Source of the DNA: a virus
DNA length: 64,000 bases
Strand: one strand, 5' to 3'
IMG/VR virus record: IMGVR_UViG_3300032323_001868
Span: 25,762-89,761 of that record
Position 1 is the stretch's first letter. Each line of letters starts with the position of its first letter. The notes under the pieces are model-generated. The model had not been told where the DNA came from. It did no database searches and worked only from the letters and a program-made list of their open reading frames with translations. Both the position numbers and the translations under genes were made by a program. Shown in pieces: positions 1 through 12,407 of the stretch.

Positions 1-99
1 TAGTCCTATAGAAATGATGACTATTAACATAGTCAATCTTCTCAAGGTCTTGCATAAGACTTATCTCATGTATCTTCATATACTCAATGAAGGCATGCA

Positions 100-282
100 T
101 TAGATTACTTCTTCATCTAGTTCGACTTCATCTTCTTCATACTGTTCATCTACCTCAATAGAATAAACTTCAGGGAATCCGTAGTCCTCGTACTCCCAGC
201 CCATCTTTTCTGCTTCTTCTTCGTTGTCTGCTTCTACTTCGTAGTTGTATTCTACAATCACCTTCAGGTCATACATTGGCAT
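100..282 (-). CDS. small acidic hypothetical early protein
   Basis: 60-aa ORF, very Glu-rich, AGAAAGGA-type RBS upstream, co-oriented with neighbours. Confidence 0.7.
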   Translation of the reverse strand: MPMYDLKVIVEYNYEVEADNEEEAEKMGWEYEDYGFPEVYSIEVDEQYEEDEVELDEEVI

Positions 283-311
283 TGTGGGATTTCCTTTCTG
301 TGGTCTTAATA

Positions 312-524
312 TTAATTATAAGGGTTGGTGTTGATTTTTACAACTTTTGAGGATGTGATACTAATCACAGGGGCCATCTGTTCTGGCTCTACCGCTGTTC
401 TTACGACAAAGGTATCCAATGAGCAAACACAGGCGGGATCGTGATTAGGAGTCTTATTAGTGATAACTTCCATCAGGGCATCACAATCAGTACAAACATA
501 ACTATACTTGGTCCACATAGGCAA
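312..524 (-). CDS. small Cys-containing (zinc-ribbon-like) hypothetical protein
   Basis: Y-x-Y-x-C-x2-C ... C-x-C pattern; GGAGG upstream. Confidence 0.6.
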   Translation of the reverse strand: MPMWTKYSYVCTDCDALMEVITNKTPNHDPACVCSLDTFVVRTAVEPEQMAPVISITSSKVVKINTNPYN

Positions 525-617
525 CCTCCATTAAATAAGCATCAGTATCACATACATCACATAGGTGTACATAATCACTGTCGTCCCAATTAGACATACA
601 CATGTTACACCTGGTCA

Positions 618-779
618 TCATCCCTCCCAATATTGCATAATGGTATTCATTGTGATATGGAGATTGCAATCACAGTCTTCTCCACCCATGTTCTCATGGA
701 ACTCAAAGTGTGATAGGTTGTCCTCATAAATTTCCATTACGAGTTCTGATATTGTGTATGGTTTGTAGGTGGTAGTCAT
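618..779 (-). CDS. 53-aa hypothetical protein (MTTTYKPYTISELV...), not in ORF track
   Basis: Translated by hand; ATG lies just downstream of a TTGATT-N17-TACAAT promoter (leaderless). Confidence 0.55.
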   Translation of the reverse strand: MTTTYKPYTISELVMEIYEDNLSHFEFHENMGGEDCDCNLHITMNTIMQYWEG

Positions 780-901
780 ATATTAATTGTAGCCTAGAAC
801 CTGGGAAAAATCAACTCTATCGTAATTACTTTTTTAATTGTATTTATTTAGTTACTGATAAGTATGTCCTATTTGTACCATTTTGGAACGTCCCGCATTT
901 G

Positions 902-975
902 CGATCTGTACGGGACTTGAACCCGTGATCTCTACCGTGACAGGGTAGCGAATTAACCAACTATTCTAACAGACC
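902..975 (-). tRNA. tRNA-Asp (GTC), CCA not encoded
   Basis: Minus strand GGTCTGT/ACAGATC acceptor stem, D-arm AGTTGGTTAA, anticodon arm CTACC-CT-GTC-AC-GGTAG, T-arm ACGGG-TTCAAGT-CCCGT, discriminator G followed by CAA. Confidence 0.95.
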
Positions 976-976
976 A

Positions 977-1006
977 GTGAGCAGTTTTATTTCATGCTCA
1001 GGAAAT
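977..1006 (-). ncRNA. H-type pseudoknot element, copy 1
   Basis: ATTTC-CTGAGCAT-GAAAT-AAAAC-TGCTCA; directly after the stop of 1011..2027 and abutting the tRNA 5' end. Confidence 0.7.
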
Positions 1007-1010
1007 TGTA

Positions 1011-2027
1011 TCATGCTAGTTGCATGACATTCTGCACAACTTTCAGCAGACGATTCTTTTCTGCGTTGATAGCAGGGTCAAATCCACTTGCACTTGCAAG
1101 GATAGATTCGTTATTGCCACCTCGTGCTGTACGATACCAGTCAAGGCGTTCTGTAAGTGCATTGAAAGCGCCCCATGCAGAGCCAGCAATCATGCCGTTA
1201 AATTCGCCTGTGTAAATATCGTTGATAATATCTACCTTGTTCTCCCACTTCTTGACGGCACCCTTAGAATCTTTTTCAGGCTTAGGGTAAGCAGCGAGAA
1301 TAATATCGTTGAATTGCTTAGCATTGACTTCCTTCTCGAACATAGCCTTAGCCATGATGTCAAATTCGTCCATGTATGCATTAGCAAGACCAAGAGTCTC
1401 ACGAGCAATCTGCACTTTACCATTGGCAGTCTGCGTGTGGCGAATCTTGAATGATTGCTTGATACCATTCTTCTTCTTGCGTGAGCCTAGTGCAAGATTA
1501 AGAGTATTAGCGCACACCACACGAACAGGTGTAATGCTTGCTTGAATAGCGATTGAGCCATCGTGTGATGTGTTGATGAGCAAATAAGTCTTTACCTTAT
1601 CTGCAACACCGCTAGGGTCTAGTACAGTCTCACGCTCTAATGCAAGAGAGCCGAATACTACACGCCCACCCTTGATAGCGCCAGCGGTTTCCCAACGACC
1701 ACCACCATCTAGGATATTGTCACCGAATGAGAATAAGTCTTCATTCTGCAATACATGATAACGCTCACCAACTACACCAAGAACATCTGTCTGGGTATTA
1801 GTTGTAGGGTTAGTGCGTACGACATATTGGTATTCTTTGTCGCTTGTTAAGTGTGATGGAATTGGCATTTCTTCAAGACGAACATTCCAACCATTGAGGT
1901 TTGCAGCCTCTAGCATTTCTGCGGTTGTTTTTTCTTCTGTGAATACAGTACCCAATCCATGCCATGCAGGTTCACGGAAAGATGCAAAAGATGCCTTGCC
2001 GTTTTGTGATTCTAGGTCATGTGCCAT
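1011..2027 (-). CDS. DUF932 / TIGR03299-type phage-plasmid protein
   Basis: MAHDLE...AWHGLG N-terminus, ETAGAIKGGRVVF, NTSHDGS, TPVRVVCANTL and RHT motifs. Confidence 0.9.
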   Translation of the reverse strand: MAHDLESQNGKASFASFREPAWHGLGTVFTEEKTTAEMLEAANLNGWNVRLEEMPIPSHLTSDKEYQYVVRTNPTTNTQTDVLGVVGERYHVLQNEDLFSFGDNILDGGGRWETAGAIKGGRVVFGSLALERETVLDPSGVADKVKTYLLINTSHDGSIAIQASITPVRVVCANTLNLALGSRKKKNGIKQSFKIRHTQTANGKVQIARETLGLANAYMDEFDIMAKAMFEKEVNAKQFNDIILAAYPKPEKDSKGAVKKWENKVDIINDIYTGEFNGMIAGSAWGAFNALTERLDWYRTARGGNNESILASASGFDPAINAEKNRLLKVVQNVMQLA

Positions 2028-2191
2028 GAGTGTTTCTCCTTTTTGTTGTTGATAATATAACTATACACCAAGCCAGCGACATATGCAAATCAGGATAGTT
2101 AGATGTGTACAAATCGGACATTTTTAAGGGTGTCGTAATTCACATCGTAAATACTTGACAAGATCAACTTTTGCGGGACGTGCAATAAAAA

Positions 2192-2223
2192 GTGAGCCGT
2201 TTACATGGACAATGCTCAGGTCC
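2192..2223 (-). ncRNA. H-type pseudoknot element, copy 2
   Basis: GGAC-CTGAGCATT-GTCC-ATGTAAAC-GGCTCA. Confidence 0.65.
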
Positions 2224-2269
2224 CTTGCCTAGTTTAAAGACATTCGACATGTCTATTAGTAGCCCCCTA

Positions 2270-2722
2270 CTAAATATTATCCTCTGCCTGAATTGAGCGG
2301 GTATCAACATTGAAATCATCGATTGAATAATCAAATGAGTCAACACTGAATTCAAGTGTGTTGGCCACATCATCTGCGTCAACATCAAATGGTACTTCAA
2401 TCTCAATCTCAAACTCTACAACTGCATTAACAGTTACAGTCTTGGTTAGTTCAAAGTCACCAATCTGTGCAAACATCTCTGCAACCTCGTGAGTGAACTC
2501 ACGGTTACCAAGGCATTCAATAACATATTCTTTGATTGCATCCTTGGTTGCTTGGTGTGCTCGTTGTTCTGCATACAATGATTGTGAGTGTTCGGATGAA
2601 CGGTCCTGCAATGAGACAATCATCGCATCCTTCTTCTCAATTAATTCCTGCAGCGCTACAGCCTGATTCTGAAGAAATTCTCGTGTCATGTAGTATTCAT
2701 TGGTTAGTACTGGCTGGTCCAT
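2270..2722 (-). CDS. hypothetical protein, coiled-coil N-half and acidic C-half
   Basis: 150-aa ORF with its own promoter and AGAAAGAGG RBS. Confidence 0.8.
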   Translation of the reverse strand: MDQPVLTNEYYMTREFLQNQAVALQELIEKKDAMIVSLQDRSSEHSQSLYAEQRAHQATKDAIKEYVIECLGNREFTHEVAEMFAQIGDFELTKTVTVNAVVEFEIEIEVPFDVDADDVANTLEFSVDSFDYSIDDFNVDTRSIQAEDNI

Positions 2723-2815
2723 GGGGGCCTCTTTCTGTTGTTGTTATTAATATAAGTCTAGCAGCGGGTACCGACAAATGCAACTTAATGGTCTTAATAG
2801 TCTTACATATTGGGA

Positions 2816-2831
2816 TGTGATTAATCTCACA
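2816..2831. promoter_or_regulatory. CRP/GlxR-like box
   Basis: TGTGA-TTAATC-TCACA, perfect half-sites. Confidence 0.7.
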
Positions 2832-2854
2832 CTGCACGTCGCAAAAAACAGTGA

Positions 2855-2884
2855 GTGAGCAGTTTTATATCATGCTCAGGATAT
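2855..2884 (-). ncRNA. H-type pseudoknot element, copy 3
   Basis: ATATC-CTGAGCAT-GATAT-AAAAC-TGCTCA. Confidence 0.7.
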
Positions 2885-2888
2885 TTAA

Positions 2889-3059
2889 TTACTTAGATGT
2901 TTTCACCATTGCAAATCGGTGTGAGCCGTTTGCTAACTTTAGTGAAACTCTAGTAAGTTTAGAGTTGATAGGTGTGAAGTTGCTAATGCGACCAGTAACA
3001 CCTGTCTTGCTTGTGGTGAACAGATCACCGATTTGATATGTATATCCGCCTAGTGTCAT
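2889..3059 (-). CDS. 56-aa small beta-barrel (SH3/KOW-like) protein, not in ORF track
   Basis: MTLGGYTYQIGDLFTTSKTGVTGRISNFTP...TRVSLKL; AAGGA RBS; paralogue of 3776..3937. Confidence 0.75.
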   Translation of the reverse strand: MTLGGYTYQIGDLFTTSKTGVTGRISNFTPINSKLTRVSLKLANGSHRFAMVKTSK

Positions 3060-3096
3060 TTGTTTTTTCCTTTTGTTAGTGGTGGTATTAAATTGT

Positions 3097-3124
3097 GTGA
3101 GCAGTTTTGGCTCTTACTCAGGAG
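3097..3124 (-). ncRNA. H-type pseudoknot element, copy 4
   Basis: CTC-CTGAGTAA-GAG-CCAAAAC-TGCTCA. Confidence 0.6.
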
Positions 3125-3228
3125 GTCTGCTTCTTTAGGTCTGCAGTAACCTTGCTCTATAGTATTTCTATTATCGCCCTAATCAGCCTGGCGAAATGAG
3201 TGGGGCTTTTACACCCCACCCAACTTTG

Positions 3229-3651
3229 CTAGAGGTAGCGAGCCACCGCATTGTATGTTGAAGTATTAACTACTTCTTCATCTGTCATCTTGAGGATACG
3301 AATTGCGTTTGTGATTTCTTCCTTCTGCTCACGATATGTGTGCTGATGGATAACCTCGAAATCCTTAGTTGGCTCTGTTGGCATATCCTTTTCGGATACT
3401 GTCAAATCGAAGTCAATGTTAAGGCAGTTATTCCATGAACGATATGAAGTGCGGAAGTTTTCTGCCTTCTTGATGTTTGCTACTGCATAGTCAATAAGTT
3501 CCTTCTTATACTTCTCATACTGCTTTTGATACTTTGCTTCGTTGGCTTCTTGTGATGTGTAGTCTGCTTCTAGTTTAGCAAGTGCGCCTTCTAGTGCCTT
3601 GATTACCTTTGGTGTTGCGATTTTAACTGAGATTGCTTTTGCTCTTGACAT
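3229..3651 (-). CDS. hypothetical helical protein
   Basis: 140-aa ORF with AAAGGA RBS. Confidence 0.8.
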   Translation of the reverse strand: MSRAKAISVKIATPKVIKALEGALAKLEADYTSQEANEAKYQKQYEKYKKELIDYAVANIKKAENFRTSYRSWNNCLNIDFDLTVSEKDMPTEPTKDFEVIHQHTYREQKEEITNAIRILKMTDEEVVNTSTYNAVARYL

Positions 3652-3698
3652 GGTGTTCCTTTTCTTTGGTGGTTGATATTTCTATTATAGGGGGTGGA

Positions 3699-3726
3699 TA
3701 AGCCTTTTTGCAACTTGCTTAGGTTG
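3699..3726 (-). ncRNA. H-type pseudoknot element, copy 5
   Basis: CAAC-CTAAGCAA-GTTG-CAAAAAG-GCTTA; compensatory changes in both stems. Confidence 0.65.
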
Positions 3727-3775
3727 GTTCACGCCTCTTGTTTATAGTGGCTGTACGCTAACCACTATGAAAGGC

Positions 3776-3937
3776 TTACGCCTTCCAAGTTGTCCAGCGT
3801 GTTGAGCCATTTACATCTAACTTAACACGAACTGTGTCCTTTGATGTTGGTACGATTTCAACGATTGTGCCTGTGACCTTTGACTTCTGTGAAGTGTAAG
3901 TGTCGCCGACCTTGTATGTTGCTACTGCTACTGTCAT
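3776..3937 (-). CDS. 53-aa small beta-barrel (SH3/KOW-like) protein
   Basis: Start moved to MTVAVATYKVGD after an AAAGGA RBS; YKVGD...VTGTIVEI...VRVKLD pattern. Confidence 0.75.
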   Translation of the reverse strand: MTVAVATYKVGDTYTSQKSKVTGTIVEIVPTSKDTVRVKLDVNGSTRWTTWKA

Positions 3938-4043
3938 GTTTTTTCCTTTTCTGTGTTGGTTTGTTATATTTCTAGTATATCCGAGAAATCTCAGAAATAC
4001 AATTCCTAGCCTAGAGAATCTCATATTTTGAGACCCTTTCCCC

Positions 4044-4059
4044 TGTGATATAGGTCACA
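4044..4059. promoter_or_regulatory. CRP/GlxR-like box
   Basis: TGTGA-TATAGG-TCACA. Confidence 0.7.
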
Positions 4060-4126
4060 AGTTGCCTGTGATAAATAGGATAAGGAAACATATCCCTAGC
4101 CATAGTATGAATTTGTCCATAGTTCC

Positions 4127-4849
4127 CTACTTTTTGGTTGCACTAAATACTATATCAGATTTCTCATAAATACACAACTTGCAACTAGCGCATGCAGACC
4201 CTTTCTGTGAGATAAGTGGAATAGCCTTTTTATTCTCAGGGCACTTAGCCCCAGGCTTGCCTGTTAACTCCTTCATGTCTTCTTGTCCTATTAAGAAATT
4301 TTTGGCAAGGTATGCAAGGGAGATATTATGATCTGCTTTAAGTCCTATACCTATAGCCTTATTATCGCTATCTGTGGAATAGTATAGTGAAAGATTAGGA
4401 ATGTCTTTTAGAATAAGCGCTGCAGACTTAACTCTGGTATATACCCAGAATTGAATGTCTGGATACTTATCAACAACTACCTTCCATGCATATGCATAAG
4501 TATCATTAAAGAAATCTCCGTCCCAGTGGATACGGAATTGCTTAGGTGCATTGCGCTTATCGCACTCTGCATTAAAATCATTAATCATTTCATTAAGTAG
4601 ACGGACCATAGTTTCTCCGTCTGCATTGCGTAGTAGTTCCCAGTTATGCAATAGGTTTTTCTTTACTGTTGGGAATATCTTTTCTAACTTGCCTGCATAG
4701 CAAACACTTTCGCAGACACTAGTAGCGCCAGGACATGAATAGTTTTTACCTGCAGGTAATCCGAATGTGTTAGCGATACTTGCTTGTTTTCCATTAGGGG
4801 TGACGGCATTAGCAACTTTTCTATCTTTAGAGCGTAGTAGTTTAGTCAT
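4127..4849 (-). CDS. Gp88-like protein (Cys-rich, probable metal or Fe-S binding)
   Basis: FGLPAG..SCPGAT..C...CYA, FRIHWDGDFF, FWVYTR and C-terminal CPE...CxxCxxC motifs typical of actinophage gene product 88. Confidence 0.8.
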   Translation of the reverse strand: MTKLLRSKDRKVANAVTPNGKQASIANTFGLPAGKNYSCPGATSVCESVCYAGKLEKIFPTVKKNLLHNWELLRNADGETMVRLLNEMINDFNAECDKRNAPKQFRIHWDGDFFNDTYAYAWKVVVDKYPDIQFWVYTRVKSAALILKDIPNLSLYYSTDSDNKAIGIGLKADHNISLAYLAKNFLIGQEDMKELTGKPGAKCPENKKAIPLISQKGSACASCKLCIYEKSDIVFSATKK

Positions 4850-5084
4850 GGTGGGACCCTCTTTCTTTTTTTAATTTTAGCATTAGCGACTGACATTTCT
4901 TTCTGTCATATTTCTTTTTATTAGGTACCGCAGAGGCCGCATTGCTACGGCGTAATTCCATAAGCCTGCGTAATTCCTCGGGTGTTTTTTTCATATAATA
5001 ATTTTAGCAAAAATCAGGGAAAAATACAAGTTGGTCTTAATTAGGGTAAATCGGACATTTGTGGTGCGGGACGTCCCGCCTTTG

Positions 5085-5327
5085 CTACTCGTCTTTTTCT
5101 ATATAAACATAGAGGTCAACATATGTGTCGTGTGCAATTGTTATTGTATCTGGTTCACCATACACATCAACACAATCGATAAAGTAATTGTCTCCAGTTG
5201 AATCAGAATTGATATCAATTACTTCGATGAGTTCATCATCAATCTTGATTAGATCATCAGGCATCAGAGAACCTGGTGTTAATTTATCTGCCCATACTAG
5301 ATCCATGTTGTTTATTGTATCAGCCAT
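5085..5327 (-). CDS. small acidic beta-rich hypothetical protein
   Basis: 80-aa ORF in co-oriented early cluster. Confidence 0.7.
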   Translation of the reverse strand: MADTINNMDLVWADKLTPGSLMPDDLIKIDDELIEVIDINSDSTGDNYFIDCVDVYGEPDTITIAHDTYVDLYVYIEKDE

Positions 5328-5403
5328 TTATTCGTCCTCTTCGCTAGAAATACATTCATAACAATCACAATATTTTGAGTGGGGAATAAAAAAATCTTCC
5401 ATA

Positions 5404-5739
5404 TTACCCCTCATCATATTCTAGTGAGAGTGGGAAGTCATCAGACCCATCTTGCCAGTCATCGGCTGGCTCAATAAATACATCAAGGTGATGCTGGTCT
5501 ACGATAGCGTGTGCAGGTGCTTGAGTTTCTCCACGATAAAGAATCTGAAAGTCACCAACCTTCGGCATGTCAATCATGCGGTCATAGTCCTCATCATAGA
5601 AGGCGTCAATGGCTTCAATGCAAGGTTGCACCATTTCTGCGGGGACTGGAGGATAGTGATTAGCCTTAAGGTGATAGAGAATCTGAGTCTCCAAGTCAAG
5701 GACTTCTTCTTTAATTCCTAGTGCTGTAACTGAACCCAT
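5404..5739 (-). CDS. conserved phage hypothetical protein
   Basis: HLKANHYPPVP...IVDQHHLD His motifs; coupled to the upstream gene. Confidence 0.75.
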   Translation of the reverse strand: MGSVTALGIKEEVLDLETQILYHLKANHYPPVPAEMVQPCIEAIDAFYDEDYDRMIDMPKVGDFQILYRGETQAPAHAIVDQHHLDVFIEPADDWQDGSDDFPLSLEYDEG

Positions 5740-5740
5740 A

Positions 5741-5956
5741 TTACTTACCCCCTACATTTCCATTACGATAAAAGATTTTGGTGTGCATTTTGCCATTAGG
5801 CTCTGACAAGTTAATTGTGCGATATTCTTTTGCATCTCCATAGTCGTTGCATGCCATGAACGCACCAACGGCAGAAAGAGCATCACTATAGCGACCAACC
5901 CATTCAGGGCTAGTGCTATTGTCATTAGTTGAAGTAACTGAGTATAAGTATTCCAT
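5741..5956 (-). CDS. hypothetical protein
   Basis: 71-aa ORF with AAGGAG RBS. Confidence 0.7.
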   Translation of the reverse strand: MEYLYSVTSTNDNSTSPEWVGRYSDALSAVGAFMACNDYGDAKEYRTINLSEPNGKMHTKIFYRNGNVGGK

Positions 5957-6308
5957 TAGTTGTAACTCCTTTTACATTCTGAGCATAGATAGTTTAATTT
6001 GCAATAGCAACCTACTGCGTTTGGGCGGAGCATATCCGTTTCATAGTATTCGTCATAGAAATCCATACTAGTTAGCCTCTTTTGTTAGGAATAGTTGGTC
6101 AATGTAGTCATAGCCTATCATGGCTTCTACCTCTCGGTCAAGGTAGCAACGGAAGCAATAGAGTTCGGTTACATCTACTGCATTTTCATTACACTGCATG
6201 CATACATGTGCGGTCATGGGAGCCTTCTTTCTTAAGTTGATATAAATATCCTATCATATGGGGGTGACAAAGTGAAGTTCATAAGCCAAGTTCTGCGAAA
6301 ATTAATGG

Positions 6309-6324
6309 TGTGAACTTAATCACA
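6309..6324. promoter_or_regulatory. CRP/GlxR-like box
   Basis: TGTGA-ACTTAA-TCACA. Confidence 0.7.
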
Positions 6325-6333
6325 CTTAATGCC

Positions 6334-6373
6334 TGTGGATAACTACCTGGCTTGTGGATAACCCTGTGGAAAA
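6334..6373 (-). promoter_or_regulatory. cluster of three co-oriented DnaA boxes
   Basis: TGTGGATAA at 6334-6342 and 6353-6361, TGTGGAAAA at 6365-6373 (TTATCCACA twice, TTTTCCACA once). Confidence 0.7.
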
Positions 6374-6389
6374 CGGGACGTTGAAAATT

Positions 6390-6418
6390 TGAGCAGTTTT
6401 AGATCGTGCTCAGGATTT
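6390..6418 (-). ncRNA. H-type pseudoknot element, copy 6
   Basis: AAATC-CTGAGCAC-GATCT-AAAAC-TGCTCA right after the stop at 6423. Confidence 0.65.
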
Positions 6419-6422
6419 TAGT

Positions 6423-6581
6423 TTATCGCTTTTGATTAAAACGACTTAGTGTAACCAACTCATTGTGTAGTCTAGAATTTTCTTTGACTAGTTCTATGTT
6501 TTGTTTCCAGAATAAAAACATAACTGTTATTGAGCCAGCAAGTGCAATTATGATTGCAAGTAAATCCCAGTTAGTTAGCAT
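6423..6581 (-). CDS. small membrane protein
   Basis: Likely start MLTNWDLL; one hydrophobic helix then a coiled coil. Confidence 0.6.
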   Translation of the reverse strand: MLTNWDLLAIIIALAGSITVMFLFWKQNIELVKENSRLHNELVTLSRFNQKR

Positions 6582-6762
6582 TTCTTGTCTCCATTTCCTC
6601 GCATGCTTGTGTAAATCTATCACGATTAAAGTTTGGATTGTCGCTTGCAAAAAAATCTGCAAAGTCATTTACCAAATCTTCCCACCAGTAATTATCTATC
6701 ATGGCTTTTTGGTATCCTGAAAGAATATCTGCAACTGCTACATAGTCTTTGCGTGTCATCAT
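6571..6762 (-). CDS. conserved phage small protein
   Basis: MTRKDY..VA and F.SDNPNFNRDRF..AC motifs common in phage early genes. Confidence 0.8.
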   Translation of the reverse strand: MMTRKDYVAVADILSGYQKAMIDNYWWEDLVNDFADFFASDNPNFNRDRFTQACEEMETRNAN

Positions 6763-6968
6763 TAGTCTGCCACCTTTAGAATTGCGTACGAGCCGTTTTC
6801 GTTGATTTCATCTAACGCAGGCTGAATGCGTGGTGCAAGAACTTCTTTTAGCAGGCCTTCAAGCATTGTTTTACGCATTGTTGATTCTAGTGCAAGAATC
6901 TGCATTCCTACTGGATGAGTTTCGTCAATTTCTGTAACGAACTTTAGAGAGTGTTCAACTTTTACCAT
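6762..6968 (-). CDS. hypothetical protein
   Basis: TAATG-coupled on both sides. Confidence 0.75.
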   Translation of the reverse strand: MVKVEHSLKFVTEIDETHPVGMQILALESTMRKTMLEGLLKEVLAPRIQPALDEINENGSYAILKVAD

Positions 6969-7150
6969 TAGAGTGTAGCCTTTCCACGAAGTGTTCCACG
7001 AACGCCGAGTGCGTCACATGATAGTTTTACAGATACGCCAGCAGGTAGCGTGTTAGGATAAGTGCTGATAAATTGTGCAACTGCACCTCGTGAGGGTAGT
7101 TGAATGGTTTTAACTGTACCATTAAAAGTTTCTAGATTTACTTTATACAT
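6968..7150 (-). CDS. hypothetical protein, paralogue of 9093..9266
   Basis: Coupled ORF sharing KV.L....G....I.L and VK..CD.LG..G.L.G. Confidence 0.75.
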   Translation of the reverse strand: MYKVNLETFNGTVKTIQLPSRGAVAQFISTYPNTLPAGVSVKLSCDALGVRGTLRGKATL

Positions 7151-7151
7151 A

Positions 7152-7367
7152 TTAGTTTTCCTTTCTTACTGCAACTGTACGGAATGTTTTGCGACCCCAT
7201 GTGTTAGAACCGCTGTAAGGTGCGATTTCTACAAGGTAGGTGTCGCAATCTGCATACCATACCGCTTTAGGGTGTGGCTCTGCACTTATGATTTCTCCAC
7301 GCATTGTTTTGGAGATATATTCTTTTCCCACAAGTAGGGACTGGACATTGTAGACATTTGCAGACAT
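7152..7367 (-). CDS. hypothetical protein
   Basis: 71-aa first gene after the promoter at 7403-7425. Confidence 0.7.
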   Translation of the reverse strand: MSANVYNVQSLLVGKEYISKTMRGEIISAEPHPKAVWYADCDTYLVEIAPYSGSNTWGRKTFRTVAVRKEN

Positions 7368-7462
7368 AAGTTTGTCTCACTTTCTTTTTTGTTAATATAG
7401 CAAGTGTAGCATTTTTGGGTGACAATATCAAATTGAGAATCGGACATATCAGACAAATTGAA

Positions 7463-7478
7463 TGTGAGGTTGGTCACA
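7463..7478. promoter_or_regulatory. CRP/GlxR-like box
   Basis: TGTGA-GGTTGG-TCACA; a near-match TGTGA-TTTACA-CCACA lies at 7563-7578. Confidence 0.7.
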
Positions 7479-7709
7479 TCGTTTTGCTACTTTATTTAAT
7501 TTTATAGATAGAATCTTAGCATAAGTAATCTTAAAAGTCAAGACGACACGCCGTAAATGTAATGTGATTTACACCACAGGGGGACGTCGTGCACGTCGCA
7601 TTTTTATGCAATGATCTGCATAGTCATTCAGTCAAGTGTAACCAGATTGAATAAATAAATAACCCAAATAAAAAAAAGAATGCAGCGTTACCATTTAAAT
7701 AAAATTCTT

Positions 7710-7886
7710 TCATCGCTCACGCACCTCCGCTAATTCGTTGCGAAATGATTCCGCAGTCTCATGTTGTTGTTTCAATGTGAGCGAAGCCCACAAGTAACCC
7801 ATTAGGTAAGCGTTACCACTATCTACATCGCCACGAATATCTTGTGACATAGATTTTACATATTGAAGTAATTGCATATCTGCCAT
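7710..7886 (-). CDS. hypothetical protein
   Basis: Likely start MADMQLL after GGGAG; AYLMGYLW motif. Confidence 0.6.
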   Translation of the reverse strand: MADMQLLQYVKSMSQDIRGDVDSGNAYLMGYLWASLTLKQQHETAESFRNELAEVRER

Positions 7887-7888
7887 TT

Positions 7889-8074
7889 TTATATCTCCCA
7901 ACAATTTTCGCAGGTAAATTTTGTGAAGTCTCTATCTTTCAATAGAATCTCCATGAAGTTGTTATCGCATACAGAGCAAGCGATTAAGTAAGTATCAGCC
8001 AGACGATAACGCCATGGCTCTGATTTAGACAAGAGACGATTCTCTTGCACTTCTGAAGCGATTAGAATTGACAT
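7889..8074 (-). CDS. small zinc-finger protein
   Basis: Likely start MSILIAS after GAGGAG; CSVC...CENC. Confidence 0.6.
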   Translation of the reverse strand: MSILIASEVQENRLLSKSEPWRYRLADTYLIACSVCDNNFMEILLKDRDFTKFTCENCWEI

Positions 8075-8432
8075 TAGTGTTGCTCCTCGCAATCTTCTAC
8101 ATAGTTGAATTCGCAGAAGTAGCAACCCATGGTTTCGCCATGTGCCTTGCATACATACTTGAACTGTGATTCCTCACAGCAATAACGCATTTCATCTTTG
8201 ATTAGATAAAATTCATTTTGGTCAATGTAGGTATCTATCATCAGTTACCTGCCTTTCTGCAACGAATACCATCGTTGCCTACATAGCGATTTAGACCTGC
8301 AACGAAAGTAATTGTTTCGTTACAGTAGAAGCAATCGCCATTACGATTAGGGAAGTGCAGAGTAGGCTTAAGGCTATCTGCGGGGGCATATAGTGAGTTC
8401 ATGTGAACCCCTTTCTTTAACTTGATATAACT

Positions 8433-8689
8433 ATCTTAGCATGGGGGTCTGACAAATTGACTCAGACATTACGGAATAAAACGGACATTTAGTACAAAAC
8501 TTTTTATGTGATTAGCGCCACATTTCGGGGGATTCAATAACATTTCCATAACAATCTTAACACTATCGGCGTGTCGATTTGACAACGTGCTGGCACGTCC
8601 AGTGTGATGTAGAACACATGTGATGCATACCACAAAGTCCAGAATGTCCGATTTGTACCCCTCAAAATGTCGGTGGTATATGTTAGGAT
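8433..8689. promoter_or_regulatory. divergent early control region
   Basis: Minus-strand promoter 8433-8455 and plus-strand promoter 8667-8689; CRP-like boxes at 8507-8522, 8603-8618 and 8619-8634; CGGACATT motifs in both orientations. Confidence 0.7.
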
Positions 8690-8721
8690 AGTTACTATCA
8701 AGATAAAGAAAGGTGGTCTCC

Positions 8722-8898
8722 ATGACTACATTAACACATACACATACACCTAACATGGGTGCAATATCCGAATACAACGAAACTAAGTACACTTTCTGTA
8801 CAGATTGTGAGCAAAATATAGAATCGTTCTATATTGAATCAGACGGAGACCGCTTAGGTATGTGGTCTGATTGGAGATTGTCAAACATATGTTGGTAG
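8722..8898 (+). CDS. small CxxC protein
   Basis: GAAAGGTGG RBS; FCTDCEQNIE. Confidence 0.65.
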   Translation: MTTLTHTHTPNMGAISEYNETKYTFCTDCEQNIESFYIESDGDRLGMWSDWRLSNICW

Positions 8899-9092
8899 AT
8901 ATTTTTCTCTGCGATGGTTGCGATACACTTGCTAAGGTAAGTGTTATAGCATCAACTATTTACATAGAGCCATGCCTATGTCAAACGAAATAGAAAGGCG
9001 CAGGGCTCACCTTGCAAGCGGGGGAACAATAGCAAACTATGACCGCTCTCACTATCCACAATGGCACAAAGATAAATTAGAAAAGGAATCAA

Positions 9093-9266
9093 ATGAAAGT
9101 AACACTCACATCAATGTCAGGCAACACACACAACATTAACCTCATGTCTAAGCAGGAGGTATATGACTTTATTGACCTTTATAAATCTACACTTTTAAAA
9201 AATCAAAGAGTAAAAATTACATGCGATATTTTAGGAATTGACGGGTATCTACAAGGTACATCGTAG
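9093..9266 (+). CDS. 57-aa hypothetical protein, not in ORF track
   Basis: MKVTLTSMSGNTHNINL...VKITCDILGIDGYLQGTS; AAAGGA RBS; paralogue of 6968..7150. Confidence 0.75.
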   Translation: MKVTLTSMSGNTHNINLMSKQEVYDFIDLYKSTLLKNQRVKITCDILGIDGYLQGTS

Positions 9267-9407
9267 ACCGATCCCGTGTGTGCTCACTAATCTTAAGTGA
9301 TATTTTTTACTGTATTGCGTATCATACATCTGAGAAAAATATTCAGATTTTTGGGAAATGAAAAATTTTTCAGATTTTCGGGTATACAAAGGTGCTATAA
9401 TCTATAT

Positions 9408-9488
9408 ATGACAGAAGATACAACTGGTAAAAACTGCTGTGCTGAATGCACATGCGAGAACCCACATCAATCAAAACCACAAGACTAA
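9408..9488 (+). CDS. 26-aa Cys-rich micropeptide
   Basis: MTEDTTGKNCCAECTCENPHQSKPQD directly after a TGCTATAAT extended -10. Confidence 0.5.
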   Translation: MTEDTTGKNCCAECTCENPHQSKPQD

Positions 9489-9594
9489 CCCCTTATGGCA
9501 ATACTAGACAATTTTGAGAACTCTTGGGACATAGAGTACCCAAACCTCATTTCAAAAACATTTTCAGATTTGGTATGCTCAGACTGCCAACAAA

Positions 9595-9798
9595 CTACTG
9601 ATAAACCTTACATATCCGACAAGCCACAAAGCCATGCTCACATTTTGGCAGGGGACGAATAATCTTATACTGATCCAGATAGAACCTAATTAAATCTGGA
9701 TGAACACCTGCTATCTCAGATATCCACTTAACACTACGACCCATAACGATATACTGGTTTTTCAACCATTCTTCACTTTGCCAGTCTCTCATTACCAT
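9595..9798 (-). CDS. HTH-like DNA-binding protein with a C-terminal CxH..CxxC
   Basis: WL..QY....RSVKWISEIAGV....IRFYL helix-turn-helix pattern. Confidence 0.55.
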   Translation of the reverse strand: MVMRDWQSEEWLKNQYIVMGRSVKWISEIAGVHPDLIRFYLDQYKIIRPLPKCEHGFVACRICKVYQ

Positions 9799-9992
9799 TT
9801 ACCTATCGGACATTTAGCATGAAGCAACTCGGTTTTAAGTTTCATAAAGCAATGACATTTTTTGCAGCGGGATCCATTCTTCTTAAAGAACTCACATCCA
9901 GAACATATTTTTAAGCGGGAGTTAACAACCTCTTCACTGGCTCTTGGAGAAGAAGGCTTTAACCAATCTCCAAATGTAACATCTTCTGGCAC
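9792..9992 (-). CDS. Cys-rich small protein (DUF6171-like)
   Basis: RL.ICxxC...RCKKCxCFM..K......CP.GKW. Confidence 0.75.
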   Translation of the reverse strand: MPEDVTFGDWLKPSSPRASEEVVNSRLKICSGCEFFKKNGSRCKKCHCFMKLKTELLHAKCPIGKW

Positions 9993-10245
9993 ATTATCTC
10001 CAAACCATCATCATAATAACAAATAAAAAAACAATAAACTGACTATATGAAAACATTCCCAATATACCGCTATCCACATAACCTATTATAGCCCATACGA
10101 AGGTTTGAAGCCACTTGTAGACATAGTTGGGAGTATCTCCCATAGATTGTCTAGAGGATGGTTTGTATAACCTCTATTTTCGGCTTGACTCGTATCCCGC
10201 CGAAATTAAAGACTATTTATCTTAGAACTCTGGTATACTTCTTGT

Positions 10246-10527
10246 ATGACCCAACACCTACTTACCACTCTTAGCAACACTGAGGCTACACGCCTAACTC
10301 CAAACGGAACTCATACTGGTTTGGACATTACTATTCAAAATGTACATGAATCAGCATATGTTTATATTGGTGGAATTGGAGTGACTTCCAATAATTATGG
10401 ATACCGCCTTGCTCCAGGTGCTGCGTGGTCTATTGAACTTTCAGGTAAAGATTCTTTATATGCAATTACTGACACTAATACTTCCAAAGTGGCAGTTCTT
10501 TCTACAAACCTAGAATCAGGAAATTAA
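10246..10527 (+). CDS. small beta-sandwich virion accessory protein
   Basis: ITIQN....VYIGG..VT...GY.L.PG motif; leaderless TGGTATACT promoter. Confidence 0.7.
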   Translation: MTQHLLTTLSNTEATRLTPNGTHTGLDITIQNVHESAYVYIGGIGVTSNNYGYRLAPGAAWSIELSGKDSLYAITDTNTSKVAVLSTNLESGN

Positions 10528-10529
10528 TT

Positions 10530-11867
10530 ATGGCACGGTTTACCCAAGCAGGTGGATCAGGTTCGGGAGAACCAGGACCACAGGGCCCAGCAGGAGAAAA
10601 CGGCACTAATGGCTCAAATGGAGCAGATGGTGCAGATGCTCTATGGAATTATGTTGGGGAATACAACGGTGGTGCATCATATGCTGTAGGAGATGTTGCA
10701 ACTTATGATGGACAACTTTGGTACCGTGCTAATGCAAACGGTGGAAATGTTGGAGATACACCTTCAGAAGGATTTATCTGGAATTTACTTGCAGCAAAGG
10801 GTATTAACGGTGCTGATGGAGCAGATGGCAATGATGGTGCTCCTGGTGCAGATGGTGCACAGGGAGATACTGGTAGTCCAGGACTTGTTTATTTAGGCAG
10901 TTATGTTTCTGGTAATGGATACATTGCAAACATTGCTGTTGTAAAAGGAAGCGATAACAATCTTTACATAGCAACATCAAGTGGTGGATTAGGAGATCCA
11001 GTTGGAAATAGTGCAGAGTGGAGCATATTCCTTCCAAAGGGTGTTGATGGAGAAGATGCAACTCTTCCACAGGATTTAGGAACAACAGACAGCCCAACAT
11101 TTAGCAAGATTACACTTACAAGTAACGGGGCAATAGATAACATTACAATTGGTGATGATGTACTTATTGGTGATGGAAATATTGCAAACCACTTAGTAAT
11201 TGTTGGAAATCAAGATTCAACACAAGGTGGAATTGTTCTTGGTGACAATAAAACTGAACAAGTTTCATCATATGGATCAAATCTTTCTTTATATGCAAAC
11301 AATGACATTATTCTTAATCCAGCAAGCACATATGCATATATTGGTACACCAACTATCGGTGGAGAAACAAGGATTGCTACTTGGGATTATGTGACAACAT
11401 CTGTTGGAACAGGTAGCAATGGAGAAGTTACAAGATGGACTCCAAACTTTACAGCAACTGGTTTAACATTTACTGGATCAGGTGCTACACATCCAACATA
11501 CAATTCACACTATGTTAAGAATGGTCGTATGGTATCTTTTTTTATTGAAATTGATATGGCTACCGTTACAAATTTTGGTACTGGACAATATAAGACAGCG
11601 CTTCCATTTGCACCACTTTCTGGAACAATGAATCATTTTCAGTCATGGTGTCTTGTTGATGAAACTGCTAATCCAGATAATACAGGACATGCTATTTTGC
11701 AAGCAGATCATTTAGCAAATACATCAGTTCTTGATTTGCACTACATAAAGCAATCTGGTGGAGCAAATTCTCCAGTAATGGAAGCATTGTTTAAGCAGGG
11801 TAGCCCAGTAACATTAACTACTGCAACCCATGTTTATATCAACGGTACTTACATAACTGCTGAGTAG
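10530..11867 (+). CDS. collagen-like fibre protein with a carbohydrate-binding-like module
   Basis: G-X-Y runs, YAVGDVATYDGQLW module, C-terminal fibre head (YVKNGRMV..FI..LPF). Confidence 0.8.
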   Translation: MARFTQAGGSGSGEPGPQGPAGENGTNGSNGADGADALWNYVGEYNGGASYAVGDVATYDGQLWYRANANGGNVGDTPSEGFIWNLLAAKGINGADGADGNDGAPGADGAQGDTGSPGLVYLGSYVSGNGYIANIAVVKGSDNNLYIATSSGGLGDPVGNSAEWSIFLPKGVDGEDATLPQDLGTTDSPTFSKITLTSNGAIDNITIGDDVLIGDGNIANHLVIVGNQDSTQGGIVLGDNKTEQVSSYGSNLSLYANNDIILNPASTYAYIGTPTIGGETRIATWDYVTTSVGTGSNGEVTRWTPNFTATGLTFTGSGATHPTYNSHYVKNGRMVSFFIEIDMATVTNFGTGQYKTALPFAPLSGTMNHFQSWCLVDETANPDNTGHAILQADHLANTSVLDLHYIKQSGGANSPVMEALFKQGSPVTLTTATHVYINGTYITAE

Positions 11868-11903
11868 TAGTAAATAGTGATATAGTTATATTTGGGGGTA
11901 GAT

Positions 11904-12407
11904 ATGTCATATCAGGTATTTGATAACTTTTTGTTACCTAACGAATTTAACCAAGTTAAGAACACTGTATGCGATCCAAGATTTCCTTGGGGATATAGTA
12001 GTTCTATTACGACTGAAGTAAGCACTGGACCATATGACTTTCAGTTTGTTCACATGTTTTATCAAAATCATAGAGTTATGTCAGAACACTTTGAATCTAT
12101 ATACCCTTTAATAAACAAAATAAATCCAGCAGCAATCGCAAGAGTTAAGGCAAATTTAGTTACTAGGAATCCAGTAAGTAACGAGTTTGGATATCACACA
12201 GATTTTGAAGATGCACATTTATTGAAGTCAGCGGTATATTATTTAGATACAACCGATGGCGTTACCAGGTTTAAGGACGGCACAGAGGTAGAATGCATAG
12301 AGAATAGACTATTAGTATTTAACAATAATATGCCACATACTTCTACTAGTTGTACGGATCAAAAGGTTAGAAGAGTCATAAATCTCAACTATTATGAACT
12401 AATTTAA
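11904..12407 (+). CDS. 2OG-Fe(II) oxygenase
   Basis: HTD...AVYYL...G.T.F...NRLLVF...HTS...RRVINLNY. Confidence 0.85.
   Translation: MSYQVFDNFLLPNEFNQVKNTVCDPRFPWGYSSSITTEVSTGPYDFQFVHMFYQNHRVMSEHFESIYPLINKINPAAIARVKANLVTRNPVSNEFGYHTDFEDAHLLKSAVYYLDTTDGVTRFKDGTEVECIENRLLVFNNNMPHTSTSCTDQKVRRVINLNYYELI

Follow-up and report, generated by a model that had tools for sequence, protein, structure and literature searches.

Copies of the element and their surroundings

The window analysed here, 64,000 nt of a lake phage (IMG/VR record IMGVR_UViG_3300032323_001868), carries six copies of a short pseudoknot on the minus strand, which is the sense strand of the local genes, and a seventh copy outside the window lies on the plus strand, again sense to its neighbouring genes (Table 1). 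The copies are dispersed, 240-2700 nt apart, and each stands behind a different gene. A sequence-only reading had proposed at least six copies, all sense-oriented and 4-105 nt past a stop codon, one of them beside the 5' end of tRNA-Asp; all six are present at the proposed sites, sense orientation holds in 7 of 7 copies, the distances measure 4-104 nt, and copy 1 does adjoin the tRNA. The P1 and P2 pairings had been quoted correctly, and the AAGC/GCTT change of copy 5 is a real compensatory one. The pattern CCTGAGYA-N10-16-GCTYA gave 5 matches where 0.06 were expected from shuffles, and covariance model R1, run over the 64 kb with filters off, returned the six copies at 50.4-16.6 bits and nothing else above 8.5.

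Table 1. Pseudoknot copies and neighbouring features. Copy coordinates run from the first P1 base through the A after P2; bit scores of copies are from the covariance model.
Feature	Position	Strand	Sequence or structure	Score or stability	Stop codon to P1 (nt)	Setting
tRNA-Asp(GUC)	901-975	minus		64.9 bits		
Copy 1	978-1006	minus	ATTTC-CT-GAGCA-T-GAAAT-AAAAC-TGCTC-A; P1 1002-1006/991-995; L1 CU; P2 GAGCA 995-999 with UGCUC 979-983; L3 AAAAC	46.6 bits	4	Past TGA of DUF932 gene; P2 ends 3 nt before tRNA-Asp
Copy 2	2193-2223	minus	GGAC-CT-GAGCA-TT-GTCC-ATGTAAAC-GGCTC-A; long-L3 variant (L3 = ATGTAAAC); L2 UU; P2 GAGC/GCUC	16.6 bits	46	Past stop of 150-aa gene; CUUUUUAUU directly downstream
Two short hairpins	2238-2272	minus		jointly -11.6 kcal/mol, z -2.3		In 46-nt gap from 150-aa gene stop to copy 2
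Copy 3	2856-2884	minus	ATATC-CT-GAGCA-T-GATAT-AAAAC-TGCTC-A	50.4 bits	4	Past TAA of 56-aa gene
Copy 4	3098-3124	minus	CTC-CT-GAGTA-A-GAG-CCAAAAC-TGCTC-A; P2 GAGUA/UGCUC with U.G wobble	39.6 bits	104	37 nt upstream of 56-aa gene; downstream of conserved element
Strong ordinary hairpin	3198-3221	minus		-20.2 kcal/mol, z -4.2		After 140-aa gene
Copy 5	3699-3726	minus	CAAC-CT-AAGCA-A-GTTG-CAAAAA-GGCTT-A; P2 AAGC/GCUU, compensatory	33.8 bits	49	
Hairpin	3733-3775	minus		-15.8 kcal/mol, z -3.2		Fills 49-nt gap from 53-aa gene stop to copy 5
Copy 6	6390-6416	minus	ATC-CT-GAGCA-C-GAT-CTAAAAC-TGCTC-A	45.9 bits	6	Past TAA of 81-aa membrane-like ORF
Copy 7	G000:C1:5767-5791 (outside window)	plus		44.2 bits (model match 5760-5795)		

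Three window copies have a stable hairpin between the stop codon and the knot. Directly upstream of the conserved element, an orthologous slot holds a pseudoknot in three relatives (L024, L046 and L107), and in this phage the same slot holds the hairpin at 3198-3221 in its place; at an orthologous slot, the pseudoknot is interchangeable with an ordinary hairpin.

Fold and covariation

The element is an H-type pseudoknot of about 28 bases, with the consensus order P1 - C(U) - GAGCA - N - P1' - A-rich AAAAC - UGCUC(A). The family sample, about 270 unique instances drawn from IMG/VR and bacterial genomes, shows covariation and G.U pairs in both helices. P1 is variable in sequence, 3-5 bp and most often 4-5 bp long, and its closing C-G pair is invariant (140/140 in one set, 141/141 in alignment A3). 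Among 106 unique exact-pattern matches from IMG/VR, 104 form a P1 of at least 3 bp and 84% one of at least 4 bp, against 12.6% when arms were re-paired between copies. The model-derived alignment A3 has 96.6% of its paired cells filled by pairs versus 83.3% in shuffles, and its covariation of 0.347 (0.093 shuffled; 0.02-0.05 with partners slid) was reached by none of 500 shuffles. P2 cells are paired in 97.7% of cases, with compensatory changes at four of the five core pairs (AAGCA/TGCTT, GGGCA/TGCCC, GAACA/TGTTC, GAGTA/TACTC); at the fifth, A-U, no covariation occurs, and the GGCTC variants have an A.G mismatch there. The G.U evidence consists of 25 GAGTA/TGCTC cases in P2 and of GU/UG pairs in P1. 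The loop reads C-U-G-A-G-C/U-A-N with an invariant U at position 2, L1 is C or CU, and the spacer is (N)AAAAC followed by UGCUC(A). L1, P2 and L3 are near-invariant in sequence across phyla, and L2 accommodates a 31-nt insertion.

Because both helices covary and carry G.U pairs, which on the opposite strand would be A.C mismatches, the element is an RNA structure and not a DNA palindrome. An RNA-level element had been inferred from the window alone, with covariation in a larger alignment as the check; that covariation is present in both helices, and sense orientation on both genome strands agrees with it. The TGAGCA and TGCTCA arms are exact reverse complements, and in 2 of 7 copies P1'/L3 is a TTG(C/T)AA hexamer 17-18 bp before TATAAT, so that a 6-bp inverted repeat TGAGCA...TGCTCA acting in DNA as an operator or promoter part could be imagined. 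This is barely conceivable, however: the orientation is always that of the local genes on either strand, G.U pairs are common in both helices, a covarying inner stem and an asymmetric A-rich linker would have no role in a palindromic operator, and the promoter overlap occurs only where P1 is CAAC/GTTG. A symmetric, strand-indifferent operator is ruled against by the seven sense copies and by the G.U pairs in both helices.

Placement relative to genes

P1 never begins closer than 4 nt to the stop codon, and in the viral and the genomic set alike the commonest gap is 5-6 nt. Gaps of 4-9 nt account for 82 of 182 viral and 29 of 75 genomic cases. In about half of the copies the gap exceeds 11 nt, and for three of this phage's seven it is 46-104 nt. 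From the knot to the next start codon the distance ranges widely, from 19 to 450 nt, about a quarter of the copies being inside operons and at most 37 nt from that start. A tight stop gap together with a broad next-start distance assigns the pseudoknot to the upstream ORF. In the ribosome, about 11 nt separate the mRNA entry and helicase site from the first P-site base, which places that site about 5 nt past a stop codon in the A site.

Downstream, 33 of 290 copies lie 2-13 nt before a same-strand tRNA and none lies just after one, 29 of the 33 cases being one and the same DUF932/tRNA-Asp junction in related phages. From this arrangement it is inferred that an RNase P cut at the 5' end of tRNA-Asp would leave a message ending 3 nt past copy 1. 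A U-rich tract starting 1-4 nt past P2 follows 44 of 188 copies, copies 2 and 3 among them, and is absent in the rest; this frequency is well above what base composition suggests. The first 8 nt downstream of the copies are G-poor. In copy 5, P1'/L3 is the -35-like hexamer TTGCAA with TATAAT 18 nt downstream, so that the knot overlaps a promoter-like -35/-10 pair, as it also does in the out-of-window copy; shuffled sequence contains at least as many promoter-like and terminator-like sites as the region does.

Distribution and novelty

Besides the source lake phage, hundreds of unrelated phages and bacteria carry the pseudoknot. Orthologous positions shared by related phages inflate the number of copies counted. 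The genes that host it span many phage and bacterial groups. The upstream genes are mutually unrelated and include two major capsid families, Hsp20 and DUF932, and the gene clusters beside copies (87 upstream, 142 downstream) share no functional theme. The earlier description of the copies as lying at the ends of early genes was too narrow, as they also stand behind capsid, Hsp20, HisRS and many other genes. Cultured carriers belong to the unrelated groups Patiencevirus, Kyanoviridae and Autographiviridae and include Mycobacterium phage Labelle (M. smegmatis), Cyanophage S-RIM4 and Paracoccus phage ParMal1. The unrelated upstream genes and the unrelated cultured carriers argue against a phage-encoded partner, and the existence of cultured carriers makes the function directly testable.

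No Rfam 15 match was obtained over any copy (window 1-12000, E<=10), nor at E<=1 in six further carrier loci, which are candidates by ORF length for the locus with a Mu-like gpT capsid gene upstream; the families without a match in these searches include preQ1-I, SAM-II/V, pistol and Mu-gpT-DE. A literature search found no paper describing the pseudoknot, and the statement that it is not a named family stands on these results. An Rfam entry is merited, as annotation pipelines currently overlook hundreds of copies.

Proposed role and alternative explanations

The evidence favours one part of the range of functions suggested earlier, namely an end-protecting roadblock or gene-end signal, and weakens another, the aptamer, by the lack of a gene theme and of an expression platform. 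Our working interpretation, its function being untested and our confidence in it somewhat short of even, is that the knot is a protein-independent roadblock which sets the 3' end of the upstream message and shields that end. It builds on the fold, strand, placement and interchange with an ordinary hairpin, all of which were observed. Each copy would form the last part of the message transcribed from the upstream gene and would fold into a compact H-type pseudoknot, P1 (4-5 bp) stacking on P2 (5-6 bp), with the AAAAC linker along P1 in an inferred triple-helix packing and the C(U) linker crossing P2, thus forming a mechanical roadblock that needs no dedicated protein. The transcript would first be cut downstream, by RNase P at a tRNA or by an endonuclease, or would end by termination at a U-tract or in a C-rich, G-poor stretch. 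Exonucleases working 3' to 5' would then trim back and halt at the knot, the block and its stabilising effect both being inferred, and a stable message ending a few bases past the stop codon would result. The knot would sit as near the stop codon as a terminating ribosome permits without unfolding it.

Some observations speak against a roadblock. The hairpin that precedes the knot in three window copies, if itself end-setting or protective, makes the knot redundant, and a pure end cap is less obvious for operon copies near the next start. The sequence conservation of P2 and of the linkers goes far beyond the needs of a simple structural block, which could mean a specific partner.

The stop-codon spacing could also reflect a translation-coupled signal, in which the knot at the mRNA entrance, with the stop codon in the A site, slows or insulates termination and uncouples cistrons; such a knot would block post-termination scanning or re-initiation. 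The 4-nt floor and the 5-6 nt mode in both sets agree with it and correspond to the spacer lengths of frameshift and readthrough pseudoknots. Coremin, a related knot, stalls ribosomes during scanning and promotes -1 frameshifting in vitro (PMC10520033, PMC10321173). We nevertheless consider it unlikely, as the many copies before a tRNA, a promoter-like stretch or a long spacer have nothing to insulate, the more distant half of the copies does not fit, no notable in-frame extension follows the stop (the next stop at copy 1 is 8 codons on), and simple packing against the ribosome footprint would give the same spacing. Low probability is likewise given to an atypical transcription terminator or pause, where P2 closes on the preformed P1 hairpin behind RNA polymerase in the manner of a terminator hairpin. 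The U-rich tracts, the position of several copies at apparent transcription-unit boundaries with sigma-70-like hexamers downstream and the exchange with a GC-rich hairpin would suit it; yet three quarters of the copies lack a U-tract, those 2-13 nt before a tRNA or about 15 nt before a Shine-Dalgarno sequence must be read through, one metatranscriptome contig crosses copy 4 unbroken (evidence from contigs alone), and promoter- and terminator-like sites are not enriched in the region over shuffles.

A block acting 5' to 3' in the xrRNA manner, halting RNase J or 5'-end-dependent decay and shielding the RNA downstream, is suggested by the likeness to coremin and xrRNA-WCC, both of which halt Xrn1 as it arrives from the 5' side, and RNase J is present in Actinobacteria, Firmicutes, Cyanobacteria and Alphaproteobacteria, the presumed hosts of many carriers. 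It appears rather improbable, since the spacing is tight to the upstream stop and loose to downstream features, the promoter-like pair overlapping copy 5 and the out-of-window copy implies downstream transcripts that start past the knot, and the hairpin hp2 on which Xrn1 resistance of coremin depends is not a general feature. More doubtful still is the view of the knot as a small ribozyme or processing site, or as a site that a conserved host protein or a small ligand binds specifically, in the manner of an aptamer or riboswitch. The near-invariance of L1, P2 and L3 across phyla speaks for it, and the size and topology of the knot recall the preQ1-I aptamer. Against it, the 87 upstream gene clusters have no theme, the 3' strand of P2 belongs to neither a Shine-Dalgarno sequence nor an alternative terminator, leaving no expression platform, the next gene lies at a variable distance, none of the riboswitch and ribozyme families in Rfam matched, an ordinary hairpin can substitute, and L2 takes the 31-nt insertion. 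A generic riboswitch was rejected for want of a one-pathway association among the upstream and downstream clusters and of an expression platform, the downstream distance being variable. A type III antitoxin RNA, with ToxI-like tandem repeats by a toxN-type gene, was also rejected, the copies being dispersed behind different genes; no toxN-type Pfam match occurred among the scanned genes beside copies, without a dedicated toxN search.

Comparison with known systems

Luteoviral (BWYV-type) and other triple-helix H-type knots have an S1 of 4-5 bp, an L1 of 1-2 nt and an A-rich L3 of 5-7 nt, and lie about 5-8 nt from the ribosomal A-site codon. The phage knot shares these stem and loop lengths and this spacing, but its codon is a stop codon, without slippery site or extended frame, and hundreds of unrelated genes share one conserved P2 sequence. 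The preQ1-I aptamer (RF00522) is likewise an H-type fold of about 30 nt with an A-rich tail along P1, whereas the knot has no Rfam match, no queuosine-gene link and no expression platform and lies at gene ends, not in leaders. Bacterial 3' stem-loop stabilisers or "positive retroregulators" include REP elements, the cry gene 3' stem-loop and the trimmed ends of Rho-dependent transcripts. With them the knot has in common its sense position at gene ends, the hairpin exchange at an orthologous slot and the presumed protection from 3' exonucleases; it differs in being a sequence-conserved pseudoknot, not a GC-rich hairpin, spread over phyla and phage families.

Should the knot indeed stop exonucleases or ribosomes on its own, bacteria and DNA phages would have their first widespread resistant RNA defined by sequence. 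The knot would then account for the way in which compact phage genomes fix message ends and relative stabilities, and synthetic operons would gain a portable stabiliser or insulator of 28 nt. It is possible, though we hold it to be doubtful, that bacteria and DNA phages own a protein-free resistant RNA of this kind, a 28-nt triple-helix pseudoknot on the coremin plan that stops processive exonucleases and perhaps ribosomes and serves many phyla as a portable end cap spaced by the ribosome footprint.

The closest systems are coremin (xrRNA-C), known from eukaryotic RNA viruses such as beny- and cucumoviruses, and xrRNA-WCC, its Watson-Crick variant, which are documented to stall exonuclease and ribosomes without protein (PMC6546385, PMC10520033, PMC10321173). 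Common to coremin and the knot are a short first hairpin closed by C-G (the knot meets the hp1 criterion of about 4 bp), a loop with C as its first base and GA(G) within it, a following A-rich ...AAAC-U... spacer, a loop-to-spacer interaction of H-type topology (GAG with CUC-A in the WCC type), a total below 30 nt and a site in 3' UTRs or between genes. The coremin loop follows YGAD or YGNNAD with G fixed at position 2, and shifting this G abolishes Xrn1 stalling (PMC10520033); the phage loop CUGAGCAN breaks the rule with U at position 2. Its P2 has 5-6 canonical pairs against 0-3 in coremin and 3 bp in WCC, and only AAAC-U is shared with the coremin spacer GUUAAACUAC, whose essential CUAC it lacks. 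Coremin needs hp2 directly after the spacer for Xrn1 resistance, whereas the knot generally has none: the 40 nt 3' of knots fold at -4.2 versus -3.9 kcal/mol when shuffled, and a stem starts within 3 nt downstream in only 8% of copies with A after P2, although the minority with C, T or G there do have a tetraloop hairpin directly downstream. The canonical antiparallel loop-spacer pairing of xrRNA-WCC is met by the knot, with its 97.7% paired P2, compensatory changes and G.U pairs, but L1 of xrRNA-WCC is a single irreplaceable G (PMC10321173) and that of the knot is C or CU. Unlike coremin, which belongs to eukaryotic RNA viruses, the knot occurs in DNA phages and bacteria, where Xrn1 is absent, and its placement is locked to the upstream stop codon; the likeness to coremin may be convergent.

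The pseudoknot in the phage genome

One architecture occurs six times on the minus strand at window positions 900-6600, in the order P1 (3-5 nt), CT, GAGCA, 1-2 nt, P1', an A-rich linker with AAAC or AAAA at its end, (T/G)GCT(C/T) and A. The sequence-only reading had described these six copies as sense-oriented elements downstream of stop codons, with a first helix (P1) that varies yet stays paired, a covarying second helix (P2) and one copy abutting tRNA-Asp, and each of these statements was borne out. All six were located at gene ends, P1 differs in sequence in every copy with pairing kept in all of them, and P2 carries an A-U swap in copy 5. When the 64 kb were searched with filters off, R1, a covariance model derived from instances other than the copies in the window, recovered exactly these six (50.4-16.6 bits; next best match, 8.5 bits), and the pattern CCTGAGYA-N10-16-GCTYA gave five matches against 0.06 expected. 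The window covers bases 25762-89761 of an 89.8-kb IMG/VR virus record, and the remainder of the record contains a single further copy; this seventh copy, on the opposite strand, is also sense to its neighbours, so that 7/7 follow the local gene direction.

The phage has a GC content of 37%, a portal protein 48% identical to portals of large Streptomyces siphoviruses, and both sigma-70-like promoters (TTGCAT) and AGGAG ribosome sites. DNA of the phage and its relatives is found in lake and freshwater metagenomes, and a host among low-GC freshwater Actinobacteria is inferred as likely. No match among cultured phages was obtained by megablast with the region. Metagenome contigs of relatives align split, from knot copy to knot copy (976 to 2857, for example), at window positions 976-1005, 2857-2886, 3773-3776 and 6391; either the aligner was misled by the repeat or the knots are sites of gene-cassette exchange.

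Positions of the pseudoknot copies and neighbouring features (window coordinates unless a record is named)
Feature	Position	Strand	Details
Copy 1	978-1006	minus	P1 starts 4 nt past stop codon; P2 ends 3 nt before tRNA-Asp
Copy 2	2193-2223	minus	46 nt from stop codon; stable hairpin within gap
Copy 3	2856-2884	minus	Starts 4 nt past stop codon
Copy 4	3098-3124	minus	104 nt from stop codon; stable hairpin within gap; P2 GAGUA/UGCUC with U.G wobble
Copy 5	3699-3726	minus	49 nt from stop codon; stable hairpin within gap; first P2 pair G-C to A-U (AAGCA/GGCTT)
Copy 6	6390-6416	minus	Starts 6 nt past stop codon
Seventh copy	G000:C1:5760-5795 (model match, whole phage record)	plus	44.2 bits; behind Hsp20 gene
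Conserved element	3149-3195	minus	TTCGCCAGGCTGATTAGGGCGAT(A/C)A(T/C)AGAAATACTATAGAGC, ~40-45 nt
Hairpin upstream of conserved element	3198-3221		-20.2 kcal/mol
140-aa early ORF	3229-3651	minus	
Repeat pair	~6334-6363	minus	GTTATCCACA(A/G)G twice in direct orientation, ~20 nt apart; intergenic, downstream of copy 6
GC-rich motif, (G)ACGTCCCG/CCCGG-type	~6370-6378, 2176-2184, 5068-5081	minus	At 5068-5081 a perfect palindrome, GCGGGACGTCCCGC, closing a four-gene block without a knot
tmRNA match (RF00023)	L030:11486-11558 (unrelated viral contig)	plus	47.3 bits, cut-off 47; ~90 nt downstream of a knot

Fold and covariation

In A1, which aligns 140 unique instances without gaps, 90.4% of cells are paired compared with 76.3% in shuffles, and covariation reaches 0.370 compared with 0.107 in shuffles (0/500 reach 0.370) and 0.04-0.08 with the partners slid. 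P2 was left out of the model behind a second alignment, A3, and is thus not fitted to structure there; 96.6% of cells are paired and covariation is 0.347 against 0.093. The claim of an RNA-level element is therefore upheld by covariation far above shuffles in both larger alignments, together with G.U pairs and strand bias. The two inner variable pairs of P1 each show all four Watson-Crick types in A3 with zero unpaired cells, and the closing C-G pair is invariant. The first pair of P2 is GC in 133 instances, AU in 4 and GU in 1, and the fourth is CG in 128, UG in 12 and UA in 1. Lower-scoring model matches add GGGCA/TGCCC, GAACA/TGTTC, GGACA/TGTCC and GAGTA/TACTC, so that compensatory change is seen somewhere in all but one of the five core P2 pairs; the exception (A-U) has none, and an A.G mismatch stands there in GGCTC variants.

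The stem and loop lengths sterically fit a classical compact H-type pseudoknot. Base triples are suggested, by inference, from the C and U of linker L1 facing G-C and A-U pairs and from the A-rich L3 along P1; those predicted are C+.G-C and U.A-U in the major groove, together with A-minor triples. An A follows P2 in most instances (226/271) without being required; paired with the U of L1, it can extend P2 to 6 bp and reduce L1 to one base. Insertions of up to 31 nt, a hairpin among them, are tolerated in L2. Copies with a base other than A behind P2 often have a UUCG or GCAA tetraloop hairpin immediately after P2, as in TGCTC-TCCC-TTCG-GGGA; this sub-type, reminiscent of the second hairpin (hp2) of the viral coremin RNA, was seen at loci L011, L022, L027, L086, L098, L074, L014, L063, L046 and L058.

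Family size and carriers

An exact-pattern scan that leaves P1' unconstrained found at least 119 stretches in IMG/VR and at least 120 in species-representative genomes. Among the unique viral matches listed, P1 has at least 3 pairs in 104/106 and at least 4 pairs in 84%, the latter falling to 12.6% once the 5' and 3' arms were re-dealt between copies. P1 is present in 73/106 of the genome-set matches listed. P1 is missing from the archaeal matches (L130, L141) and from some 45 of the 120 genome matches listed, which were taken as chance or palindromes.

Among the carriers with a well-formed fold are many Saccharibacteria and other Patescibacteria, along with Aminicenantes, Clostridia and Erysipelotrichia; Actinobacteria, among them a Nocardia isolate and a Nanopelagicales MAG; and Cyanobacteria, Bacteroidota and Proteobacteria. 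Three cultured phages of unrelated groups, Mycobacterium phage Labelle (Patiencevirus), Cyanophage S-RIM4 (Kyanoviridae) and Paracoccus phage ParMal1 (Autographiviridae), carry one copy each, 9-13 nt past an annotated same-strand CDS.

Placement and neighbouring elements

A sense ORF ends just upstream of the knot in most of 279 unique instances. The spacing between the stop codon and the first base of P1 shows a hard floor at 4 nt, with 5-6 nt as the mode, and measures 4-9 nt in 82/182 viral and 29/75 genomic cases. A structure about 5 nt beyond a stop codon in the A site stands just outside the entrance of the ribosomal mRNA channel. Judged by this geometry and the observed gap, the knot is packed as tightly as is possible without being unfolded by the terminating ribosome. 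On the downstream side, the next start codon lies at widely varying distances, the median being near 100 nt. Same-strand tRNAs follow 2-13 nt downstream in 33/290 copies, 29 of them tRNA-Asp at a single orthologous junction and the others Gln, Ser, Leu and Asn; no knot among the 290 copies sits just after a tRNA. The upstream genes form 87 clusters without a theme, among them DUF932, two major capsid families, GP88, Hsp20, HisRS and HTH regulators.

The conserved TTCGCCAGGCTGATTAGGGCGAT element is present in at least 10 related phage contigs, in every case flanked by a gene-end structure, either knot or hairpin, on one side and by the next knot on the other; it may serve as a promoter or mark where a small RNA ending in copy 4 begins. 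The slot upstream of it holds a pseudoknot in relatives L024, L046 and L107 and the stable hairpin in the window phage, which indicates that knot and ordinary stem-loop can replace each other at this one orthologous slot. The 140-aa ORF is conserved beside knots in related phages. It gave a near-full-length, sub-threshold Pfam match to the T4 endoribonuclease RegB (E 9e-4; 19.7 bits, cut-off 27), for which PHROGs gave no support. The GTTATCCACA(A/G)G repeat pair looks like an operator. The GC-rich motif recurs at many related loci, 10-25 nt after knots or gene ends and often behind AAAATTTTC.

Possible function

Taken together, the knot belongs to the upstream cistron. Our preferred reading, tentative and held short of even confidence, is a roadblock that needs no protein and that sets and shields the 3' end of the message upstream of it. 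This reading rests on that link, on the tolerance of the knot beside processing sites and U-tracts, on the lack of need for a shared phage gene and on the hairpin substitution. Downstream termination or cleavage would come first, and the knot would then fix and protect the end; at copy 1, an RNase P cut would leave the knot with a tail of just 3 nt. Such a tail is too short for 3' exonucleases to engage.

The position just past stop codons also brings in a ribosome-directed insulator, which is regarded as unlikely, and an atypical terminator stands equally low. As to termination, a U-rich tract lies directly 3' of the knot in 44/188 copies and the first 8 nt there are G-poor; copy 4 is spanned by one metatranscriptome contig, and a second contig, from a relative, ends 5 nt 3' of copy 5, but assembled contigs cannot show RNA ends and nothing is concluded from either. 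A 5'-to-3' block shielding downstream RNA is rated slightly lower. A ribozyme, or a site for a specific ligand or protein, is more doubtful again, and the knot/hairpin interchange is easier to reconcile with a structural role than with recognition by a ligand or a sequence-specific protein. A DNA element is barely credible: a double-stranded DNA palindrome is ruled out by the G.U pairs, the strand bias and the asymmetric linker.

Several further candidates were rejected. CCA follows the A in only 18/188 copies, against a tRNA-like minihelix tailed with ACCA. A T4 MotA box or sigma-70 promoter was discarded as a general reading, with promoter-like sites occurring no more often than in shuffled sequence; a -10 hexamer lies 8-9 nt past TGCTCA in 3/7 copies, one of the three inside the tRNA. 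boxA (UGCUCUUUAACAA) has only UGCUC in common with the knot. A partner encoded by the phage, for example the 140-aa ORF, was set aside, since its RegB match lacks support and the carriers include unrelated phages and bacteria.

Comparison with known RNA structures

In line with the sequence-only reading, which recognised no named family, no Rfam 15 family matched the knot in window 1-12000 (E<=10) or in six further loci (E<=1), and no paper on it was found by motif strings and topic. It is a real, widespread and uncatalogued RNA with precise gene-end placement, whose function is untested but testable. The closest likeness is to coremin, the xrRNA-C pseudoknot of plant and other eukaryotic RNA viruses, and its Watson-Crick variant xrRNA-WCC (PMC6546385; PMC10520033; PMC10321173). 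The knot resembles coremin in its short hairpin closed by C-G, a loop that starts with C and contains GA(G), and an AAAC-U spacer, and xrRNA-WCC in the GAG/CUC-A interaction. However, it lacks the fixed G at loop position 2 and the CUAC spacer of coremin and the single-G L1 of xrRNA-WCC, and the obligatory hp2 of coremin is not general, because the 40 nt downstream of knots fold no better than shuffles. The knot is therefore not classed as a coremin member; by analogy, it may be built like coremin and is proposed to work like it.
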